DNA from: Thermoplasmata archaeon
GTDB taxonomy: Archaea > Thermoplasmatota > Thermoplasmata > Lutacidiplasmatales > UBA184
Assembly (NCBI GenBank): GCA_030037735.1
Contig: JASHQC010000056.1
Coordinates: 1,707 to 65,706 of the forward strand
Direction: 5' to 3'
Length of the DNA: 64,000 bases
The position numbers were made by a program, and so were the translations under genes. This document shows positions 59,586-63,545 of the stretch, piece after piece. The notes below the pieces were generated by a model that was given only the letters and a program-made list of their open reading frames with translations, was not told the DNA's origin and did no database searches. The first letter of the stretch is position 1; the number at the start of each line of letters is the position of its first letter.

Positions 59586-59670
59586 GCCAGCCATGGGAGG
59601 GATGTGGGCTAAGGGTTCAAAGCCTTGCGAGAGAGAGCGCAAGAACCCGGCGAGGGAACCCCGACATAGG
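59586..59670 (+). repeat. copy 1 of ~80-nt repeated element with tRNA T-arm-like core (gggagggatgtgggctaagggttcaaagcc)
   Basis: Shares the gggagggatgtg-NNN-ctaagggttcaaa block with copy 3 (25/28 nt) and flanking ccagcc / gcgag / ga(a)ccc..gaggg motifs with copies 2 and 3. Confidence 0.55.
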
Positions 59671-59704
59671 CTGAGCGAGGAAGACAGCCAAACCGGAGGG
59701 CGAA

Positions 59705-60055
59705 TCAGGTTAGGTTTCGTCGTGTCCCGCTTCGAGCCGCAATTGCCTTCCGCAGTCGCCGAAGTTTGTCGTAGAACTCGGGGAGTCGGAAACCGAATGC
59801 GATGAAAACCAGGGTCTCGCCGCGTCGGAAGTAAACTCCTCTCCAGAGATCGCCGACGTGGAGCGAATATAGACCTTCTGCCGCCACCCGCTGTCGCTGC
59901 CTCAGCTCTTCGCAGAACCATTCGGGTCCGTGGGCAATCGGCGAATCTCCGGCGGCGATCTCTCGGAACGCCGAGATAAACACCTCGCGGACTTCGGGGG
60001 GCAGGGCGAGAAACTCTGTGTCCGCTTCCTCGATAGTTGCGAGCCGGAACGGCAC
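59705..60055 (-). CDS. RelE/ParE-superfamily (Gp49/HigB-like) toxin candidate
   Basis: C-terminal ..YSLHVGDLWRGVYFRRGETLVFIAFGFR..EFY resembles RelE-fold toxins. Probable GTG start at 60053-60055, 7 nt after the upstream RHH gene stop; an alternative ATG at 60139 would overlap. Confidence 0.4.
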   Translation of the reverse strand: MPFRLATIEEADTEFLALPPEVREVFISAFREIAAGDSPIAHGPEWFCEELRQRQRVAAEGLYSLHVGDLWRGVYFRRGETLVFIAFGFRLPEFYDKLRRLRKAIAARSGTRRNLT

Positions 60056-60062
60056 GGAACCC

Positions 60063-60287
60063 TCAATAGGGCTGCTTTCGGCTGCGGGCGATGAGCTCGT
60101 CGATGGGATGCGGCTTGCCTTCCCGGATCCGCCGGGCAAGTTCGGCCATCGTGAGCTGCGTAGGGTGGGCGATCAAGAGACCGCGAATCACATCGTCGTA
60201 GGTGGCGCCCCCGGTCTTGAGGCTCTCCAGGAGTTGCCGGGTCTCCTGAGAAACAGTAATCGTTGTAGCCGCCATGGCACAATCCAA
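60063..60287 (-). CDS. ribbon-helix-helix (CopG/ParD-like) antitoxin candidate
   Basis: ..TTITVSQETRQLLESLK..DDVIRGLLIAH gives a beta-strand then two helices; the C-terminal tail PTQLTMAELARRIREGKPHPIDELIARSRKQPY is typical of toxin-neutralising segments. Confidence 0.45.
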   Translation of the reverse strand: MDCAMAATTITVSQETRQLLESLKTGGATYDDVIRGLLIAHPTQLTMAELARRIREGKPHPIDELIARSRKQPY

Positions 60288-60460
60288 TTGGGTTCATGAA
60301 CCTAGGTCAATTAAGACTATTGGTAAAGCCGAGTCTCTTGCCCCGTCGGACGCAGCATTGGAAGCCGCGGTAGGGAATCGGTGAAAAGTTCGATTCCCGA
60401 CCCCGTCGCCGGTTATCACGGGGGAGGTAGGGATTGGGGTTTGACTGCATCCCGCTGAGT

Positions 60461-61945
60461 CTATCGCGAGGTCGGCACCGAGACCCGATAGACCCCGATG
60501 GGGGCGCTGACGTTCTTGAGCCGGGCCCTCGCCAACTCGGCCATTTTGACCGGCACTTTGTTCCACACCTGGTCGTATACTTGCTGGGAGACGCAGATGC
60601 CTCCGGGTTCGGCCATCGGCTCGATCCGTGACGCGATGTTGACCGCGTCCCCGTAGATGTCGCCGCTGACGGAAACCAGGTCTCCGACGTGGATTCCGAT
60701 GCGGAGCTGGATCGGATCCCGGCGACGAGTCTGGTTGCGCTTGCGGACGGCGCGCTGCACATCGATCGCACACGCGGTCGCATCCAAGGCGCTCGTGAAC
60801 TCCAAAAGAAATGCGTCACCGATGGTCTTGACCTCCCGGCCCCGGTGCCGGGGGAGCGCCGCCCGTACCAGCGCCCGATGTTCCTCCAGCAGTTCGAGAG
60901 CGCGGGATTCGTCCTTTTGGGCGAGGGCCGTAAAGCCGACCATGTCCGTGAACATGATGGCGGCCAGTCTCCGTTCTTTCGGTGGCGGGTCCATCACATC
61001 CCGAGCGAGCTGAACGTTTCGAACGTCCCCCGATCGGTTCCGAACCTTCAGTCGGATCTCGTCCCCGGGCCCATGGGCCTTGATCGCCTGCAGGAAACCT
61101 CCGACCATGGCGTCGACGTCCACGTCTCCTCCGACCCGCTGATCATCGATCGCCACTATTGCGTCCCCCTGGCCTACACCGGCAAGGAGGGCGACACTAT
61201 CCGTGCGCGGTGGAACAACCGTGATACCGGCCGCGCTGGGGGCCTTCTCGCCCGCAAGGACGGGCCGCCGGGCATCGACCGCAGTGGCGATGCCATGAAC
61301 CCAGCAGAGGCAGATGCCAAGCGAGCACGACGGACATACGCAACGGCATTCCAGTCCTTCCTTACTCAGCTCCCAGACCGTCACTTCGCAGCCTTTCGTA
61401 TCCAGAATCTCGAGCGCGCGGGAGTACTCCCTCATGAGCTCTTCGGCCAGGTCGGCCGTATTCCCTTCCTCGATCGCCCACGGGCTGTCGAGTTGACGGT
61501 GGGCCACGACATGCAAGACCGAGTACCCGAAGGTCGCCTGGCCCAGAAGTCCGTAGAGGTCCTGCAAGGCCATAGAGGGCCCCCTCGGTTGGCCGGCCGC
61601 CAACTCGGAAACGCCCGAGGGCGCTACTGGGACGAGGAGGTCGGGTTCCCGGGCGGAGATGCCCATCATTCGGATGCGCAATGCCTCGGTATGGTCTTCG
61701 GCCATCGCCCGAATCTGGCTAAGAAATATCGAAGCGTCGGGGTGTCCGTCCAGCTCTTTGGAGATTGACTCGAGCGCGGCCATAATCTTCTCTTCTATCC
61801 TCATCATCGATACGATGTGGTCGCGCAGCTTCGTCTTGTGCGGGTCGTCGACGGGTCTCGGCTCGAGTCGGGATTTCTTCGCTGTCATGGAACGCTGACC
61901 GAGGGAAGCGGCATCATCGCGATATACCCGCTTGAAGGTTTGCAA
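60461..61945 (-). CDS. class III adenylate/guanylate cyclase (CHD) with PDZ domain and Cys-rich N-terminal helical domain
   Basis: C-terminal CHD motifs (AIMFTDMVGFT, KTIGDAFLLEF, GIHVGDLV, GDAVNIASR); a PDZ-like segment (GITVVPP..GDAIVAIDDQRV..GDEIRLKV); an N-terminal ~200-aa domain with CRCVCPSCSLGICLCWVHG. Confidence 0.75.
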   Translation of the reverse strand: MQTFKRVYRDDAASLGQRSMTAKKSRLEPRPVDDPHKTKLRDHIVSMMRIEEKIMAALESISKELDGHPDASIFLSQIRAMAEDHTEALRIRMMGISAREPDLLVPVAPSGVSELAAGQPRGPSMALQDLYGLLGQATFGYSVLHVVAHRQLDSPWAIEEGNTADLAEELMREYSRALEILDTKGCEVTVWELSKEGLECRCVCPSCSLGICLCWVHGIATAVDARRPVLAGEKAPSAAGITVVPPRTDSVALLAGVGQGDAIVAIDDQRVGGDVDVDAMVGGFLQAIKAHGPGDEIRLKVRNRSGDVRNVQLARDVMDPPPKERRLAAIMFTDMVGFTALAQKDESRALELLEEHRALVRAALPRHRGREVKTIGDAFLLEFTSALDATACAIDVQRAVRKRNQTRRRDPIQLRIGIHVGDLVSVSGDIYGDAVNIASRIEPMAEPGGICVSQQVYDQVWNKVPVKMAELARARLKNVSAPIGVYRVSVPTSR

Positions 61946-62044
61946 TCGCGTCTAGGAACTTAGGGGGAATCCGATCGGGCCCGGCGAACCAGGAGGGGCC
62001 CACTCGCCGATTGCGCTCGACGCCAGCCGGCGACGATGCCCGAC

Positions 62045-62572: not shown

Positions 62573-62590
62573 TGTCCCTGACTGCTATAT

Positions 62591-62605
62591 AATATCCAAA
62601 GGATA
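62591..62605. promoter_or_regulatory. perfect 6-3-6 palindrome atatcc-aaa-ggatat overlapping an AT-rich TATA-like stretch (ctatataatatcc) in the hxlR/VOC divergent intergenic region
   Basis: Read directly from the sequence; HxlR-type regulators typically bind inverted repeats in divergent promoters. Confidence 0.45.
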
Positions 62606-62631
62606 TCACGCGCAAGGACGAGGTTGCTGGA

Positions 62632-63048
62632 ATGGCGAGGCCCCGCGCACCTCCAACGCCCAGGGAGGGGGGGCTTGCCTTCACCGAATTGGCCAGCGAA
62701 GACCCCCGAGCTACCCAGCGGTTCCTCGAGCAGGTGTTCGGCTGGAAGTTTCGATCGGTCGAGATGCCGATGGGGGAGTATCTCGCCTGCGAGACCCCCG
62801 ACGGTCGGGGAGGGATCCGACCGGTCCGGTCAACGGAGGCCCCGTCGAGTCTTGCGTACATCCAAGTCCGGGATCTCGAGGAGGCACGGCGTCGAGTGGA
62901 GGCCGCGGGAGCCAAGATCGTTCTCCCGCGGGTCGATGTTCCCGGCATGGGTTGCTTCCTGTGGTTCAGGGTCCCCGGAGGACCGTTAATGGCGTGCTGG
63001 CAGGACCTGCCGGCTCACGCAAGGAAGACCGAGGAGCGGGAAAGATGA
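62632..63048 (+). CDS. VOC (glyoxalase/bleomycin-resistance/dioxygenase) family protein
   Basis: 138 aa with a VOC-like beta-alpha-beta-beta-beta pattern. Confidence 0.55.
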   Translation: MARPRAPPTPREGGLAFTELASEDPRATQRFLEQVFGWKFRSVEMPMGEYLACETPDGRGGIRPVRSTEAPSSLAYIQVRDLEEARRRVEAAGAKIVLPRVDVPGMGCFLWFRVPGGPLMACWQDLPAHARKTEERER

Positions 63049-63401
63049 CGCAAGCCAAGGACGTGGTGTCGAAATACCAAGAGGCGATGGGAAAAGGTGA
63101 CTGGAAGGCGGCGCGGCTGCACCTCAGGGACAACCTTGAGTTCCGGGGACCGCTCGATACGTTCCACAAAGCCGACGACTACATCGCCGCCCTCCAGCGA
63201 CTGTATCCGATGGTAGAGAAGGTCGATGTGAAGCGGGTCTTCGCCGAAGGCGACGATGTCGTCGTATTGTGTGACCTTCACTTCAAGCCACCGATGCCAA
63301 CGATGTACGTGGTGGAGTGGTACGGGGTGACGGGCGACAAAATCTCCCGAGTCCAGGTGGTCTTCGACCCGAGACCGATGGCGCCCGCCCCGCCGAAATA
63401 G
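63045..63401 (+). CDS. SnoaL-like / NTF2-fold protein
   Basis: MTQAKDVVSKYQEAMGKGDWKAARLHLRDNLEFRGPL.. is typical SnoaL-like; its ATG overlaps the VOC stop (ATGA). Confidence 0.5.
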   Translation: MTQAKDVVSKYQEAMGKGDWKAARLHLRDNLEFRGPLDTFHKADDYIAALQRLYPMVEKVDVKRVFAEGDDVVVLCDLHFKPPMPTMYVVEWYGVTGDKISRVQVVFDPRPMAPAPPK

Positions 63402-63461
63402 AGCGACTCGTCCGCGGCGACTACCCTGGAGGCACGGGGCGGAGATTTGGGCCAGGGCCTG

Positions 63462-63545
63462 GAGATTCCAGCCGCGGGAGGGATGTGAACTAAGGGTTCA
63501 AATCCCTCCGGACCTCACGGACGCGTGGCGCCCGAGGGGTCCCTT
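63462..63545 (+). repeat. copy 3 of the ~80-nt repeated element (attccagccgcgggagggatgtgaactaagggttcaaatccctccggacc...gaggggtccc)
   Basis: Contains GGGTTCAAATCCC (a canonical archaeal T-loop sequence) inside a ggaggg/ccctcc stem; no acceptor or anticodon arms. Confidence 0.55.

Follow-up and report, generated by a model that had tools for sequence, protein, structure and literature searches.

Cis-mobilizable elements (CIMEs) are att-flanked segments that have no integrase of their own and are formed and moved by site-specific accretion with integrase-bearing partners. They are bacterial, usually single, several kb in size and tied to conjugative elements. A review covers CIMEs together with accretion at the att sites of ICEs and IMEs in Streptococcus (PMC5704250). 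Tycheposon islands of Prochlorococcus are hypervariable, anchored at tRNA genes and carry small adaptive cargo modules, and at any one moment most of them lack an integrase (Hackl et al., bioRxiv 10.1101/2020.12.28.424599). A tRNA site is re-used in these islands, with newer elements displacing older ones and partial tRNAs strewn through the island (bioRxiv 10.1101/2020.12.28.424599), and re-use of tRNA sites has also been noted in archaea (PMC6563490; PMC9897764). Archaeal integrative elements of the PYG1, TKV/pTN3-like and SSV types measure 9–23 kb, carry an integrase and have repeats of ~44 bp; an integrase of the SSV type divides its gene in two at the att site (PMC9897764, PMC8371274).

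Here we describe an array of short repeated elements and small gene modules near the end of a 64,000-nt stretch of DNA from an uncultured Thermoplasmata archaeon (hereafter the window). Judging from sequence comparison, the elements are probably (at about 80%) att-site scars left by serial, site-specific insertion of modules at the 3' end of a tRNA-Thr(GGT) gene. We consider the locus a genomic island of a known kind, unusually cassette-like and without an integrase of its own. The whole data set consists of metagenome-assembled genomes and metagenome contigs.

Elements and modules in the window

A first-pass annotation had reported three copies of an ~80-nt element. All three are present and co-oriented, but the total is five (c1–c5), with one element in each intergenic gap over 58.9–63.6 kb. 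A repeat search of the window grouped 59587–59629, 62060–62102 and 63468–63510 as a single family with 72%–84% identity. An HMM derived from the core recovered these three copies (E = 3e-14 to 3e-11) and two more in the same orientation, at 58999–59054 (E = 3e-9) and 60354–60412 (E = 5e-10). The first 58 kb held no comparable plus-strand copy (best other HMM match, E = 0.57), in line with the earlier remark that nothing equivalent occurs elsewhere in the window. Reading the sequence also bore out the 25/28-nt core agreement between copies 1 and 3. Only ~45–55 nt are common to all five copies, and the downstream blocks thought to be shared occur only where copies close one and the same module (c1 and its counterparts in contigs L016 and L019). 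From the tRNA outward, the array reads tRNA-A-c3-B-c2-C-c4-D-c1-E-c5, with the following features:

63513..64000, unstranded: start of module A, which extends beyond the window end up to the tRNA (L001 gene list)
63457..63512, minus: c3 (first-pass copy 3), closest to the tRNA; nhmmer E = 9e-16
62104..63456, unstranded: module B, with HxlR regulator, VOC/glyoxalase and SnoaL-like protein (Pfam)
63045–63401, plus: SnoaL-like protein of module B (Pfam)
62632–63048, plus: VOC/glyoxalase of module B (Pfam)
62183–62572, minus: HxlR regulator of module B (Pfam)
62049..62103, minus: c2 (first-pass copy 2); nhmmer E = 1e-11
60406..62048, minus: module C, encoding a class III nucleotide cyclase of 475 aa (Pfam)
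60352..60405, minus: c4, overlooked in the first pass; nhmmer
59632..60351, minus: module D, a 70-aa and 116-aa gene pair
60063–60275, minus: 70-aa gene of module D
59705–60055, minus: 116-aa gene of module D
59578..59631, minus: c1 (first-pass copy 1), distal end of module D; nhmmer E = 5e-13
59049..59577, unstranded: module E, ~0.5 kb with only small unsupported ORFs
58993..59048, minus: c5, overlooked in the first pass, most distal; repeat family, nhmmer and alignment to the tRNA
57519..58904, plus: MFS transporter gene, past the last recognisable element (Pfam)

Module A contains unannotated DNA, ~0.9 kb of it devoid of gene calls, together with an abhydrolase/adenylate-cyclase gene that we call only LipJ-like because its NCBIfam LipJ match (E = 7e-120) scores 400.7 bits, below the family cut-off of 800 bits. 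The module C cyclase has a weak, sub-threshold PDZ_2 match (Pfam). Module D had been labelled a toxin–antitoxin pair, which Pfam and NCBIfam did not confirm: neither assigned a family, the 116-aa protein had zero matches, and the lone match of the 70-aa protein was a sub-threshold one to DUF7557. ORFs of module E had no Pfam or NCBIfam matches. The MFS gene may be either distal flank or an older cassette. In contig L034 an element borders an MFS gene immediately ahead of the conserved DLH gene; in L008, the closest relative, an att repeat is followed by a Usp-like gene with no MFS gene in between.

Relation of the elements to tRNA-Thr(GGT)

Contig L001 matches the tail of the window at 99.96% identity (6885/6888 nt) and carries a tRNA-Thr(GGT) at 8748–8820 on the minus strand (ARAGORN), 2.3 kb past the window end. 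This is the kind of parental tRNA with a matching 3' end that the first-pass annotation had proposed looking for. Each of the five elements, read on the minus strand, aligns to its 3' end, ...ATTCCCTCCCGCGGCTGG. The "5' box" noted earlier, CCAGCCGCGGGAGGGA, corresponds in reverse complement to the final ~20 nt of the intact tRNA, and the minus-strand run homologous to the tRNA, ...(T-loop)CCCTCC CGCGGC T, is the reverse complement of the 5' block attCCAGCCGCGGGAGGG. The plus-strand core GGGTTCAAATCCC, which had been read as the T-arm, is instead the inverted arm of a palindrome and not the tRNA-derived portion. With the homology placed on the minus strand, the 3' acceptor strand is present in the copies, contrary to the view that they have no acceptor arm; ARAGORN reported no tRNA gene in the window, as had been stated for the copies. 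Each copy comprises a portion of the T-loop, the 3' strands of both T-stem and acceptor, and the discriminator base. An inverted T-loop/T-stem copy precedes each tRNA piece, which makes the site an imperfect palindrome of ~27–33 bp.

Similarity to the tRNA varies along the array. Mismatches to the best-matching tRNA allele number 1, 4, 3, 5 and 5 per 20 nt from proximal to distal, so element decay appears to track distance from tRNA-Thr roughly. Two copies match the 20-mer of the tRNA 3' end at three or fewer mismatches, versus 0.07 expected by chance. Element c3 reads, on the minus strand, GGAGGGATTTGAAC-CCTTA-GTTCACATCCCTCC-CGCGGCT (inverted arm, spacer, partial tRNA-Thr 3' end). Its T-loop, TTCAAAT, is of the type found in c1–c3 and corresponds to the tRNA-Thr allele of another lineage (L018, L025, L029), while the host tRNA has TTCGATT; c3 differs from these alleles at 1 and 3 positions of the 20-mer, respectively. 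Element c4 (GGGAATCG-AACTTTTCAC-CGATTCCCTACCGCGGCT) fits the host's own allele, TTCGATT, with 3/20 mismatches. The core and 3' flank of c2 share homology with the 3' end and flank of the tRNA that precedes the same cyclase module in L006/L007, and blastn similarity of module C to L006 begins within the final 13 nt of the L006 tRNA. Some ~60 nt of additional sequence upstream of c1 recur at the elements behind module D in L016 and L019, and the trailer of c5, TGGTCTTCCC, is also present in today's tRNA flank.

The palindromes raise the question of whether the element could be a structured small RNA present in several copies, or a tRNA-like RNA, with a functional hairpin, such as a processing or stability signal, an option named in the first pass that we regard as very improbable. 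Three of the five window copies form hairpins well past shuffled controls (z = -3.0 to -4.5; c3 as single-stranded DNA, -3.4; c4, -4.5), and 73.6% of cells pair over 20 elements versus ~50% with the partner columns slid by one. A few changes are compensatory (e.g., TTTGCAC/GTGCAAA in L026). However, covariation was weak, with four double-change pairs, a value reached in 44/500 shuffles, and the commonest form holds a conserved C:C mismatch. Elements c1 and c5 fold no better than shuffles, the palindrome of c1 being degenerate and without a stable hairpin (z = +0.7). Rfam returned no matches against the window, whether gathering scores or a limit of E ≤ 10 applied, genes beside the elements lie on both strands relative to them, and the best-conserved part is no more than the 3' end of the tRNA.

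Module exchange and distribution among relatives

The locus was compared among contigs that are anchored by ECH and reach past the tRNA (L002, L003, L005–L008, L011, L014). The upstream order gyrB...AhpC-Nop-SDR-ECH-tRNA is syntenic and the tRNA identical in all of them. Gene content from the tRNA to DLH is different in every one, and L002/L003 are almost empty. Across arrays, recurring modules of 0.7–2.4 kb, bounded by elements, occupy differing positions, with breakpoints at or near elements: tRNA-A-degenerate site-D-element in L019, where module B is missing and A precedes D directly; tRNA-C in L006/L007; tRNA-D-element in L018, L025 and L029; and tRNA-cyclaseTPR-element-D-element in L016. 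In L034 the tRNA is followed by six single-gene cassettes with an element behind each. Module D is found at position 1 (L018, L025, L029), 2 (L016, L019, L021, L034) and 4 (window).

Between genomes, the similarity of modules exceeds that of the adjacent core gene by 10–20 points. Modules A, C and D share 77%–89% identity between genome pairs, compared with 66%–78% for adjacent ECH genes. Module A is 88.6% identical to its counterpart in L019, and its DNA with no called gene 85%, versus 68% for ECH; module C is 88% identical to the module directly after the tRNA in L006/L007, versus 77.5% for the core. These differences from the neighbouring ECH gene suggest that the modules moved horizontally. 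Additionally, an exact 16-nt repeat, ATTCCCTCCCGCGGCT, lies on both sides of one 201-aa ORF in L008 (GNAT-like match sub-threshold, 20.0 bits against a cut-off of 20.7), and in L011 a repeat of the tRNA 3' end brackets an ABC/FtsX module; both may represent recent insertion events.

Exchange could also have occurred by ordinary homologous recombination, with an unvarying tRNA and elements of ~50 nt serving as portable homology and no site-specific recombinase involved. DNA imported from relatives would then replace, delete or add modules. The tRNA is 100% identical between lineages, elements have 13–45 nt in common, there is no single fixed breakpoint nucleotide, and the lack of modules B and C in L019 is explicable by repeat-to-repeat deletion. 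We consider this unlikely as the general process, because it leaves unexplained the origin of the partial tRNA copies and their co-orientation with the tRNA, gives no account of the palindromic half-site that arrives with each new module, and sits poorly with the L008 duplication, a classic signature of site-specific insertion. Some deletions could nevertheless have arisen in this way. On the other side, module A has c3 behind it in the window but a different, degenerate site in L019, and the sites ahead of module D in L016 and L019 are unlike c4. Because elements differ between the same neighbouring modules, exchange points are not cleanly resolved, which counts against the att-scar interpretation.

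Pattern scans placed the element on Thermoplasmata or Thermoplasmata-like contigs in 4/4 genome matches and 9/10 metagenome matches. Eight of the 13 Thermoplasmata matches had a co-oriented tRNA-Thr(GGT) 0.65–3.1 kb upstream, and the other five were short contigs or loci that ended sooner. No viral contig carries the site, a result that also weighs against att scars. The least probable origin is a tRNA-derived, MITE- or SINE-like transposable element, as floated in the first pass, or an integron attC site in a CALIN cluster. Multiple short palindromic copies do lie among small cassette-like genes, and GNAT, VOC, SnoaL, methyltransferase and the toxin-like pair are of types common in integron cassettes. 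However, copies are not dispersed: none lies in the window's other 58 kb, and those in databases sit in co-oriented arrays, downstream of tRNA-Thr where contigs reach the tRNA. Neither terminal inverted repeats accompanied by target duplications nor an IntI gene were seen. The R'' (RYYYAAC) and R' (GTTRRRY) boxes are missing from the outer ends expected of a 57–141-nt attC site; the nearest strings, TTTGAAC and GTTCAAA, miss the consensus and are 5 nt apart.

A further alternative, which we hold possible although doubtful, is that the modules are decayed full-size integrase islands or proviruses at tRNA-Thr, whose integrase and backbone were deleted, with no small cassette ever moving alone. 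Tandem accretion followed by decay is a textbook route (PMC6563490; bioRxiv 10.1101/2020.12.28.424599), and the gene-free stretch of module A and a truncated ABC gene duplicate in L011 suggest decay. In L033, a Lutacidiplasmatales contig, a complete Prim-Pol/resolvase/tyrosine-integrase element heads a similar array at another tRNA, in which four co-oriented partial 3' ends of that different tRNA separate cassette-like modules, the D pair included. However, independent decay would not be expected to give single-gene modules that agree, ends included, at differing positions across genomes; module D recurs with the same ends in at least eight arrays. Unrelated cargos also end alike in a left half-site of ~20 nt, GGCTTTGAACCCTTAG, and no integrase pseudogenes were seen in ~15 arrays.

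Proposed serial insertion and comparison with known systems

Of the three options raised in the first pass, att-like remnants of tRNA-targeted integration are the one that the matching tRNA-Thr(GGT) 3' end supports. The att-scar interpretation draws on the tRNA homology and co-orientation of the elements, their presence at each module boundary, the gain, loss and reordering of modules, the module identities, the rough decay with distance, the T-loop allele of another lineage in c1–c3, the repeats in L008 and L011, the confinement of the element to Thermoplasmata sites downstream of tRNA-Thr, and the L033 array headed by an integrase-bearing element. Small DNA modules would insert repeatedly and site-specifically at the tRNA 3' end. 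The site on an incoming circle would consist of a palindromic left half, ~13–20 nt that match the tRNA 3' end exactly, and a trailer rich in pyrimidines. Recombination would restore an intact tRNA and displace the old 3' end, with all earlier modules, outward. Successive insertions would yield the order in the window. Joining would be performed by a tyrosine recombinase, with the crossover presumably inside the common 13–20 nt. We infer this enzyme wholly, because Pfam scans of array ORFs and precomputed Pfam lists gave no integrase, recombinase or recognisable fragment in ~15 tRNA-Thr arrays; it may act in trans or have been lost later.

Module size (0.5–2.4 kb, often a single gene) counts against this interpretation when set beside the 9–23 kb usual for integrated archaeal elements (PMC9897764). 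Like PYG1, TKV/pTN3-like and SSV-type elements, the inserts have a segment of the tRNA 3' end directly repeated at the far end and would regenerate the tRNA, but identity here covers 13–20 nt plus a palindromic extension. In contrast to SSV-type elements, flanks vary by module, with no common int(N)/int(C) remnants. Integron arrays and CALINs resemble the locus in the co-oriented, imperfectly palindromic site after each small, mostly single-gene cassette, in cargo types, in shuffling between genomes and in a single fixed proximal insertion site. They differ in that the site here derives from a tRNA 3' end instead of having the R''-L''...L'-R' attC architecture, and the anchor is a tRNA gene rather than attI, with IntI absent. 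CIMEs are likewise att-flanked segments without their own integrase, whereas these are archaeal arrays of up to six ~1-kb cassettes with no known helper. Compared with tycheposons, the host is archaeal (Thermoplasmata), an integrase-bearing element has not yet been seen at tRNA-Thr, and modules are often single genes, each with a conserved palindromic half-site end and putative mobility. The two are alike in re-using one tRNA gene, displacing older elements outward and scattering partial tRNA copies, and L033 joins a tyrosine integrase to a Prim-Pol replication gene, as tycheposons do.

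Repeat elements and their parental tRNA

The three repeats reported in the first-pass annotation belong to one direct-repeat family (72–84% identity), and a core HMM recovered them at E = 3e-14 to 3e-11. The same model added two co-oriented copies, so that the three described earlier are part of a set of five. The best other plus-strand HMM match in the remaining 58 kb of the window had E = 0.57, in keeping with the remark that nothing equivalent occurs elsewhere. Between 58.9 and 63.6 kb, each intergenic gap contains exactly one element, regardless of the strand of the neighbouring genes. 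The elements separate gene modules A to E in the order tRNA-A-c3-B-c2-C-c4-D-c1-E-c5. A candidate sixth element between the tRNA and c3 (7196-7232 of the overlapping contig L001) was not significant (HMM, E = 0.54), and the gap between the MFS and Usp genes (window 57348-57519) held no convincing element.

Elements from the tRNA outward, with mismatches (of 20) to the better-matching tRNA allele
63468-63510, tRNA-like part on minus: element c3, 1 mismatch
62060-62102, tRNA-like part on minus: element c2, 4 mismatches
60354-60412, tRNA-like part on minus: element c4 (HMM, E = 5e-10), 3 mismatches
59587-59629, tRNA-like part on minus: element c1, 5 mismatches
58999-59054, tRNA-like part on minus: element c5 (HMM, E = 3e-9), 5 mismatches
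L001 8748-8820, minus: intact tRNA-Thr(GGT), 2.3 kb past the window end (ARAGORN)

The parental tRNA that the first-pass annotation had suggested seeking was found just beyond the window. A look-up of the SnoaL protein led to L001, an NCBI MAG contig (GCA_030051455.1, JASIPS010000148.1) that overlaps the window's last 6.9 kb with 6885 of 6888 bases identical and extends 3.8 kb further, where it carries the intact tRNA-Thr. Each of the five elements aligns, in minus-strand orientation, with the last ~20 nt of this tRNA (...ATTCCCTCC CGCGGC T GG). This stretch takes in the end of the T-loop, the 3' strands of T-stem and acceptor, the discriminator base and the start of the trailer. The tRNA-end 20-mer matches c3 and c4 at three mismatches or fewer, with 0.07 matches expected by chance. 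The strand had previously been misread: what derives from the tRNA is the "5' block" attCCAGCCGCGGGAGGGA in reverse complement, and the "T-arm" GGGTTCAAATCCC on the plus strand belongs, as its inverted arm, to an imperfect palindrome composed of a left arm GGAGGGAWTYGAAC, a 5–10-nt spacer and a right arm GTTCRAWTCCCTCC. Two tRNA alleles are represented, as the T-loop TTCGATT of the host's own tRNA is also found in c4 and c5, and the TTCAAAT of the c1–c3 type is that of a tRNA-Thr allele of another lineage (L018, L025 and L029).

Twenty distinct elements align gap-free. Even where the cargos are unrelated, they keep the left half-site with its spacer GGCTTTGAACCCTTAG and the core CCCTCCCGCGGCT. 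The T-loop part of the right arm is variable, and a pyrimidine-rich trailer comes after the site. After each insertion, this trailer could act as a terminator for transcription of the tRNA. That the elements are not tRNA genes holds: ARAGORN found none in the window, and each element contains the segment from T-loop to 3' end alone, with no cloverleaf. We also rejected the 3' half of a split tRNA, since ~20 nt of tRNA are present and no half from position 38. We note a second partial core (CAATCCCTACC, after GTCAAACCCC) at window ~60418-60440, minus strand, ~40 nt upstream of c4 in the tRNA orientation. This by-eye sighting, not significant by HMM, may represent what is left of another att site whose cassette was deleted.

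A 27-nt degenerate pattern of the c1–c3 type matched four stretches, all in Thermoplasmata MAGs, among 185,579 species-representative genomes scanned, and a co-oriented tRNA-Thr(GGT) lies 0.65–3.1 kb upstream in three of them. A slightly looser pattern retrieved ten metagenome contigs, nine of them genuine and one an AT-rich chance match; the tRNA is on the contig in five of the nine, the rest being short. The suggested SINE/MITE-like element, for which copies scattered over unrelated loci and bearing terminal inverted repeats and target-site duplications would be expected, does not agree with this distribution, as there is no copy in the other 58 kb of the window and the assessable matches are all co-oriented and downstream of tRNA-Thr. 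A viral or plasmid donor was likewise rejected, with 0 matches to viral contigs in three scans using element and tRNA-3' patterns.

Insertion hotspot and exchange of modules

The tRNA-Thr is base-for-base identical in L001–L003, L005–L008, L011 and L014, all related loci. By the source names of homologues of the enoyl-CoA hydratase gene (ECH) beside the tRNA, the organism is a Thermoplasmata archaeon. In relatives anchored on ECH and reaching past the tRNA, the upstream side is syntenic (gyrB, amidohydrolase, LplA, AhpC, Nop, SDR, ECH). Between the tRNA 3' end and the conserved dienelactone hydrolase gene (DLH), content differs in every one of these relatives. Constant upstream genes and an identical tRNA next to variable downstream content indicate a classic insertion hotspot.

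Content downstream of tRNA-Thr
Window: ~7 kb of modules
L002/L003: one MFS gene only (nearly empty)
L006/L007: cyclase, then other genes
L011: ABC/FtsX module
L014: other genes

The complete tRNA-Thr found by ARAGORN stands, intact and regenerated, at the proximal end. Direct repeats of its 3' segment follow downstream in the same orientation, and sites in relatives are nearly empty or differently occupied, with breakpoints within or at elements. Two other features were observed around the hotspot. A 6.4-kb insert (L005 3624-10001, GCA_022749815.1) with few, mostly unannotated ORFs, one of 558 aa, separates the otherwise adjacent SDR and ECH genes, and would add a second spot of variability, on the tRNA's opposite side. 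At L014 9900-10876, in the variable region downstream of tRNA-Thr, a 761-aa ORF with no Pfam match includes four or five diverged tandem repeats at 126-nt spacing (motif ...AACGGGGACCTGTACGT...).

Comparison of the window-equivalent array with relatives (blastn) revealed the same modules at different array positions. Module A, a LipJ-like abhydrolase-cyclase with ~0.9 kb lacking a called gene, follows the tRNA in L019 and is joined directly to module D, with B and C absent. Module C (475-aa cyclase) sits directly after the tRNA in L006/L007. Its similarity to these loci starts inside the last 13 nt of the tRNA, the counterpart of the 3' portion of c2, and the trailers match as well (GGAATTTCTTCGCAGGCGTCGGG against GGAAATTCTTCGCGGTCGTCGGG). 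Module D, a pair of genes for 70-aa and 116-aa proteins, is first after the tRNA in L018, L025 and L029, second in L016, L019, L021 and L034, and fourth in the window; the same element type follows it in every contig that includes its distal end (the L021 contig stops within D).

The clearest array is L034, in which tRNA-Thr is followed by six single-gene cassettes (in order, 4HBT thioesterase, D, methyltransferase, 201-aa ORF, methyltransferase and MFS), with an element after each, and then DLH. Four elements occur within 7 kb in L023, with cyclase-TPR, GNAT and TPR genes between them. In L008, an exact 16-nt repeat (ATTCCCTCCCGCGGCT) lies on both sides of a single 201-aa ORF that matches one family alone, GNAT, and that below threshold. 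The ABC/FtsX module of L011 is flanked on both sides by a tRNA-3' repeat, and a truncated second copy of the module comes next. Just after the distal repeat, a 99-nt stretch of the ABC-transporter N-terminus recurs (11144-11242 and 15116-15214, 73% identity), which suggests that two related ABC/FtsX modules inserted successively and that the older was truncated.

Identity of modules and of ECH, for the same genome pairs
Module A, L019: module 88.6%, ECH 68.4%
Module C, L006: module 88.3%, ECH 77.5%
Module D, L016: module 83.9%, ECH 66.7%
Module D, L018: module 76.6%, ECH 65.8%

The part of module A without a called gene is still 85% identical. Between lineages, the modules far exceed the adjacent core gene in similarity, a pattern consistent with mobility. 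Together, tRNA homology, orientation, boundaries, polymorphism and horizontal similarity support the earlier proposal of att-like remnants of tRNA-targeted integration.

Some cargo families recur. The label "TA pair" previously given to module D finds no backing in Pfam or NCBIfam, neither of which assigns the 70-aa/116-aa pair. Its family comprises 79 homologue clusters, and all source-named ones are from Thermoplasmata; the pair may serve mobile-element maintenance or regulation, rather than being a proven toxin-antitoxin. Class III adenylate/guanylate cyclases occur by tRNA-Thr or elements in at least seven arrays and in three architectures: PDZ-like-cyclase (PDZ below the Pfam cut-off), abhydrolase-cyclase (LipJ-like) and cyclase-TPR.

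Recurrent cargo
Window 59705-60275, minus: module D pair
L031 9781-10342: module D pair
L032 4282-4623: module D pair
L033 9786-10357: module D pair
Window 60461-61945: cyclase
L001 7328-8680: cyclase
L006 11172-12599: cyclase
L016 1262-3175: cyclase
L017 1235-2833 and 3180-5105: cyclases
L019 3018-4370: cyclase
L023 6960-8939: cyclase

Recombinases and the nature of the site

Pfam scans of array ORFs and precomputed Pfam assignments were free of integrase and recombinase domains, both for the window array and for ~15 related tRNA-Thr arrays; inserted DNA with an integrase was seen solely in L033, an analogous array at another tRNA. Outside the array, the look for integrases covered part of the window: 9-25 kb holds core genes (e.g. 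MCM, NMD3 and SepF), 49-58 kb holds core or transport genes, and a look-up of the 44 kb region returned no record. The MCM replicative helicase gene (19402-22662, minus) contains an intein with a LAGLIDADG homing-endonuclease domain (precomputed Pfam, identical protein).

L033 (2295-15315 in GCA_044451945.1, a Lutacidiplasmatales MAG) was reached via homologues of the module D 116-aa protein. It carries an element with Prim-Pol, N6/N4 methyltransferase, resolvase and tyrosine integrase genes, after which come four co-oriented partial 3' ends of another tRNA (TTCGAATCCGCTCGGGGCTA and variants, acceptor ...CGGGGCTA) at 8427, 8450, 9598 and 15296. They mark off from one another an HTH-AHSA1 pair, the D pair with further genes, and an ABC transporter. 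L033 shows the same architecture at another tRNA, with the presumed helper element still present, and the intact tRNA is expected upstream of the retrieved sequence. In three contigs, a tyrosine-integrase gene lies 1–2 kb upstream of the D pair, and two of them also carry Mrr and a type I restriction-modification system. Two of these contigs, L031 and L032, do not identify the helper because they have no tRNA-Thr-like site.

The elements could in principle function as DNA or as RNA. The palindrome is real, with 73.6% of cells pairing against ~50% when partner columns are slid by one, and single-stranded c2, c3 and c4 give good folds (z = -3.0 to -4.5), which a structured sRNA, another earlier suggestion, would display. 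However, c1 and c5 do not fold well, and the four pairs with double changes among the 20 elements were reached by 44 of 500 shuffles and are not above controls. Rfam had no match at gathering scores across the window, and at E <= 10 over 58.5–64 kb it returned chance-level drz-agam-1, MIR4374 and sR14 alone. Relative to the elements, the genes on either side occur on both strands. With no convincing covariation, folding uneven between copies and no Rfam match, we consider a structured sRNA unlikely; the data fit a recombination site better.

Two other site types were set aside. The occurrence of one element per gap first suggested an integron attC array or CALIN, which calls for an imperfect palindrome of 57–141 nt bordered by R'' (RYYYAAC) and R' (GTTRRRY) boxes, with intI/attI nearby. 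The nearest sequences, TTTGAAC and GTTCAAA, fail the consensus and lie 5 nt apart (by eye, 20-element alignment), and we dropped the idea on these failed boxes and on the tRNA homology. An SSV-type "suicidal" integrase split at att was also rejected, as flanks differ between modules and hold no conserved coding remnant.

Proposed mechanism and known systems

The feature is a tRNA-anchored island with partial-tRNA att scars, which explains the origin of the repeats. Serial site-specific insertion into the tRNA-Thr 3' end is the best-supported mechanism. An incoming circle would carry the palindromic half-site, then 13–20 nt shared with the tRNA 3' end, and a trailer; recombination would regenerate the tRNA and displace the old 3' end, with all earlier modules, outward. 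We infer the joining enzyme, as well as its acting in trans and the point of crossover.

Serial insertion has two variants. Small cassettes may have been mobilised in trans, as suggested by module ends that are identical at different array positions, a half-site shared behind unrelated cargos and the absence of integrase remnants. Alternatively, full-size elements may have inserted and then decayed, for which there is precedent, along with L033 and signs of decay in module A and L011. Homologous recombination between repeats probably contributes deletions, but alone it leaves the origin of the partial tRNA copies unexplained. Beyond serial insertion as such, the arrays might result from gene capture by an active, integron-like system in Thermoplasmata, which would amount to a cassette platform working without IntI/attC; we consider this unlikely. 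Here the tRNA-Thr 3' end would act as attI, a ~45-nt palindromic site mimicking it would act as attC for each, mostly single-gene, cassette, and a recombinase from elsewhere in the genome or from a transient helper would insert, excise and shuffle cassettes in trans.

As the product of serial insertion, the odd repeat family is explained as a footprint of gene flow. Through the tRNA-Thr hotspot, small accessory genes pass between uncultured Thermoplasmata of soil and peat type, including those for nucleotide cyclases, GNAT acetyltransferases, methyltransferases, NUDIX/HAD hydrolases, VOC and SnoaL proteins and a widespread, uncharacterised gene pair. If cassettes move in trans, the arrays would be the counterpart, in archaea, of integrons and of the tycheposon islands of Prochlorococcus, and the elements a simple sequence handle with which to catalogue the mobile gene pool of this lineage.

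Streptococci harbour cis-mobilizable elements, which are flanked by att sites, lack an integrase and are moved by one supplied in trans; the modules are also att-bounded and without integrase, and their movement in trans would be the further parallel. Partial tRNA copies from integration are common in archaea and bacteria, and some pipelines mis-annotate them as tRNA genes (PMC9897764). Array building by re-use of a single site is also known (PMC6563490). In the tycheposon islands of Prochlorococcus, older elements are pushed in by newer ones, partial tRNAs are scattered, and most islands are without an integrase at a given time (bioRxiv 10.1101/2020.12.28.424599), the same logic as in the Thermoplasmata arrays. 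Compared with these systems, the present case is archaeal, has no integrase in ~15 tRNA-Thr arrays, and consists of arrays of largely single-gene cassettes, each with a conserved palindromic half-site.
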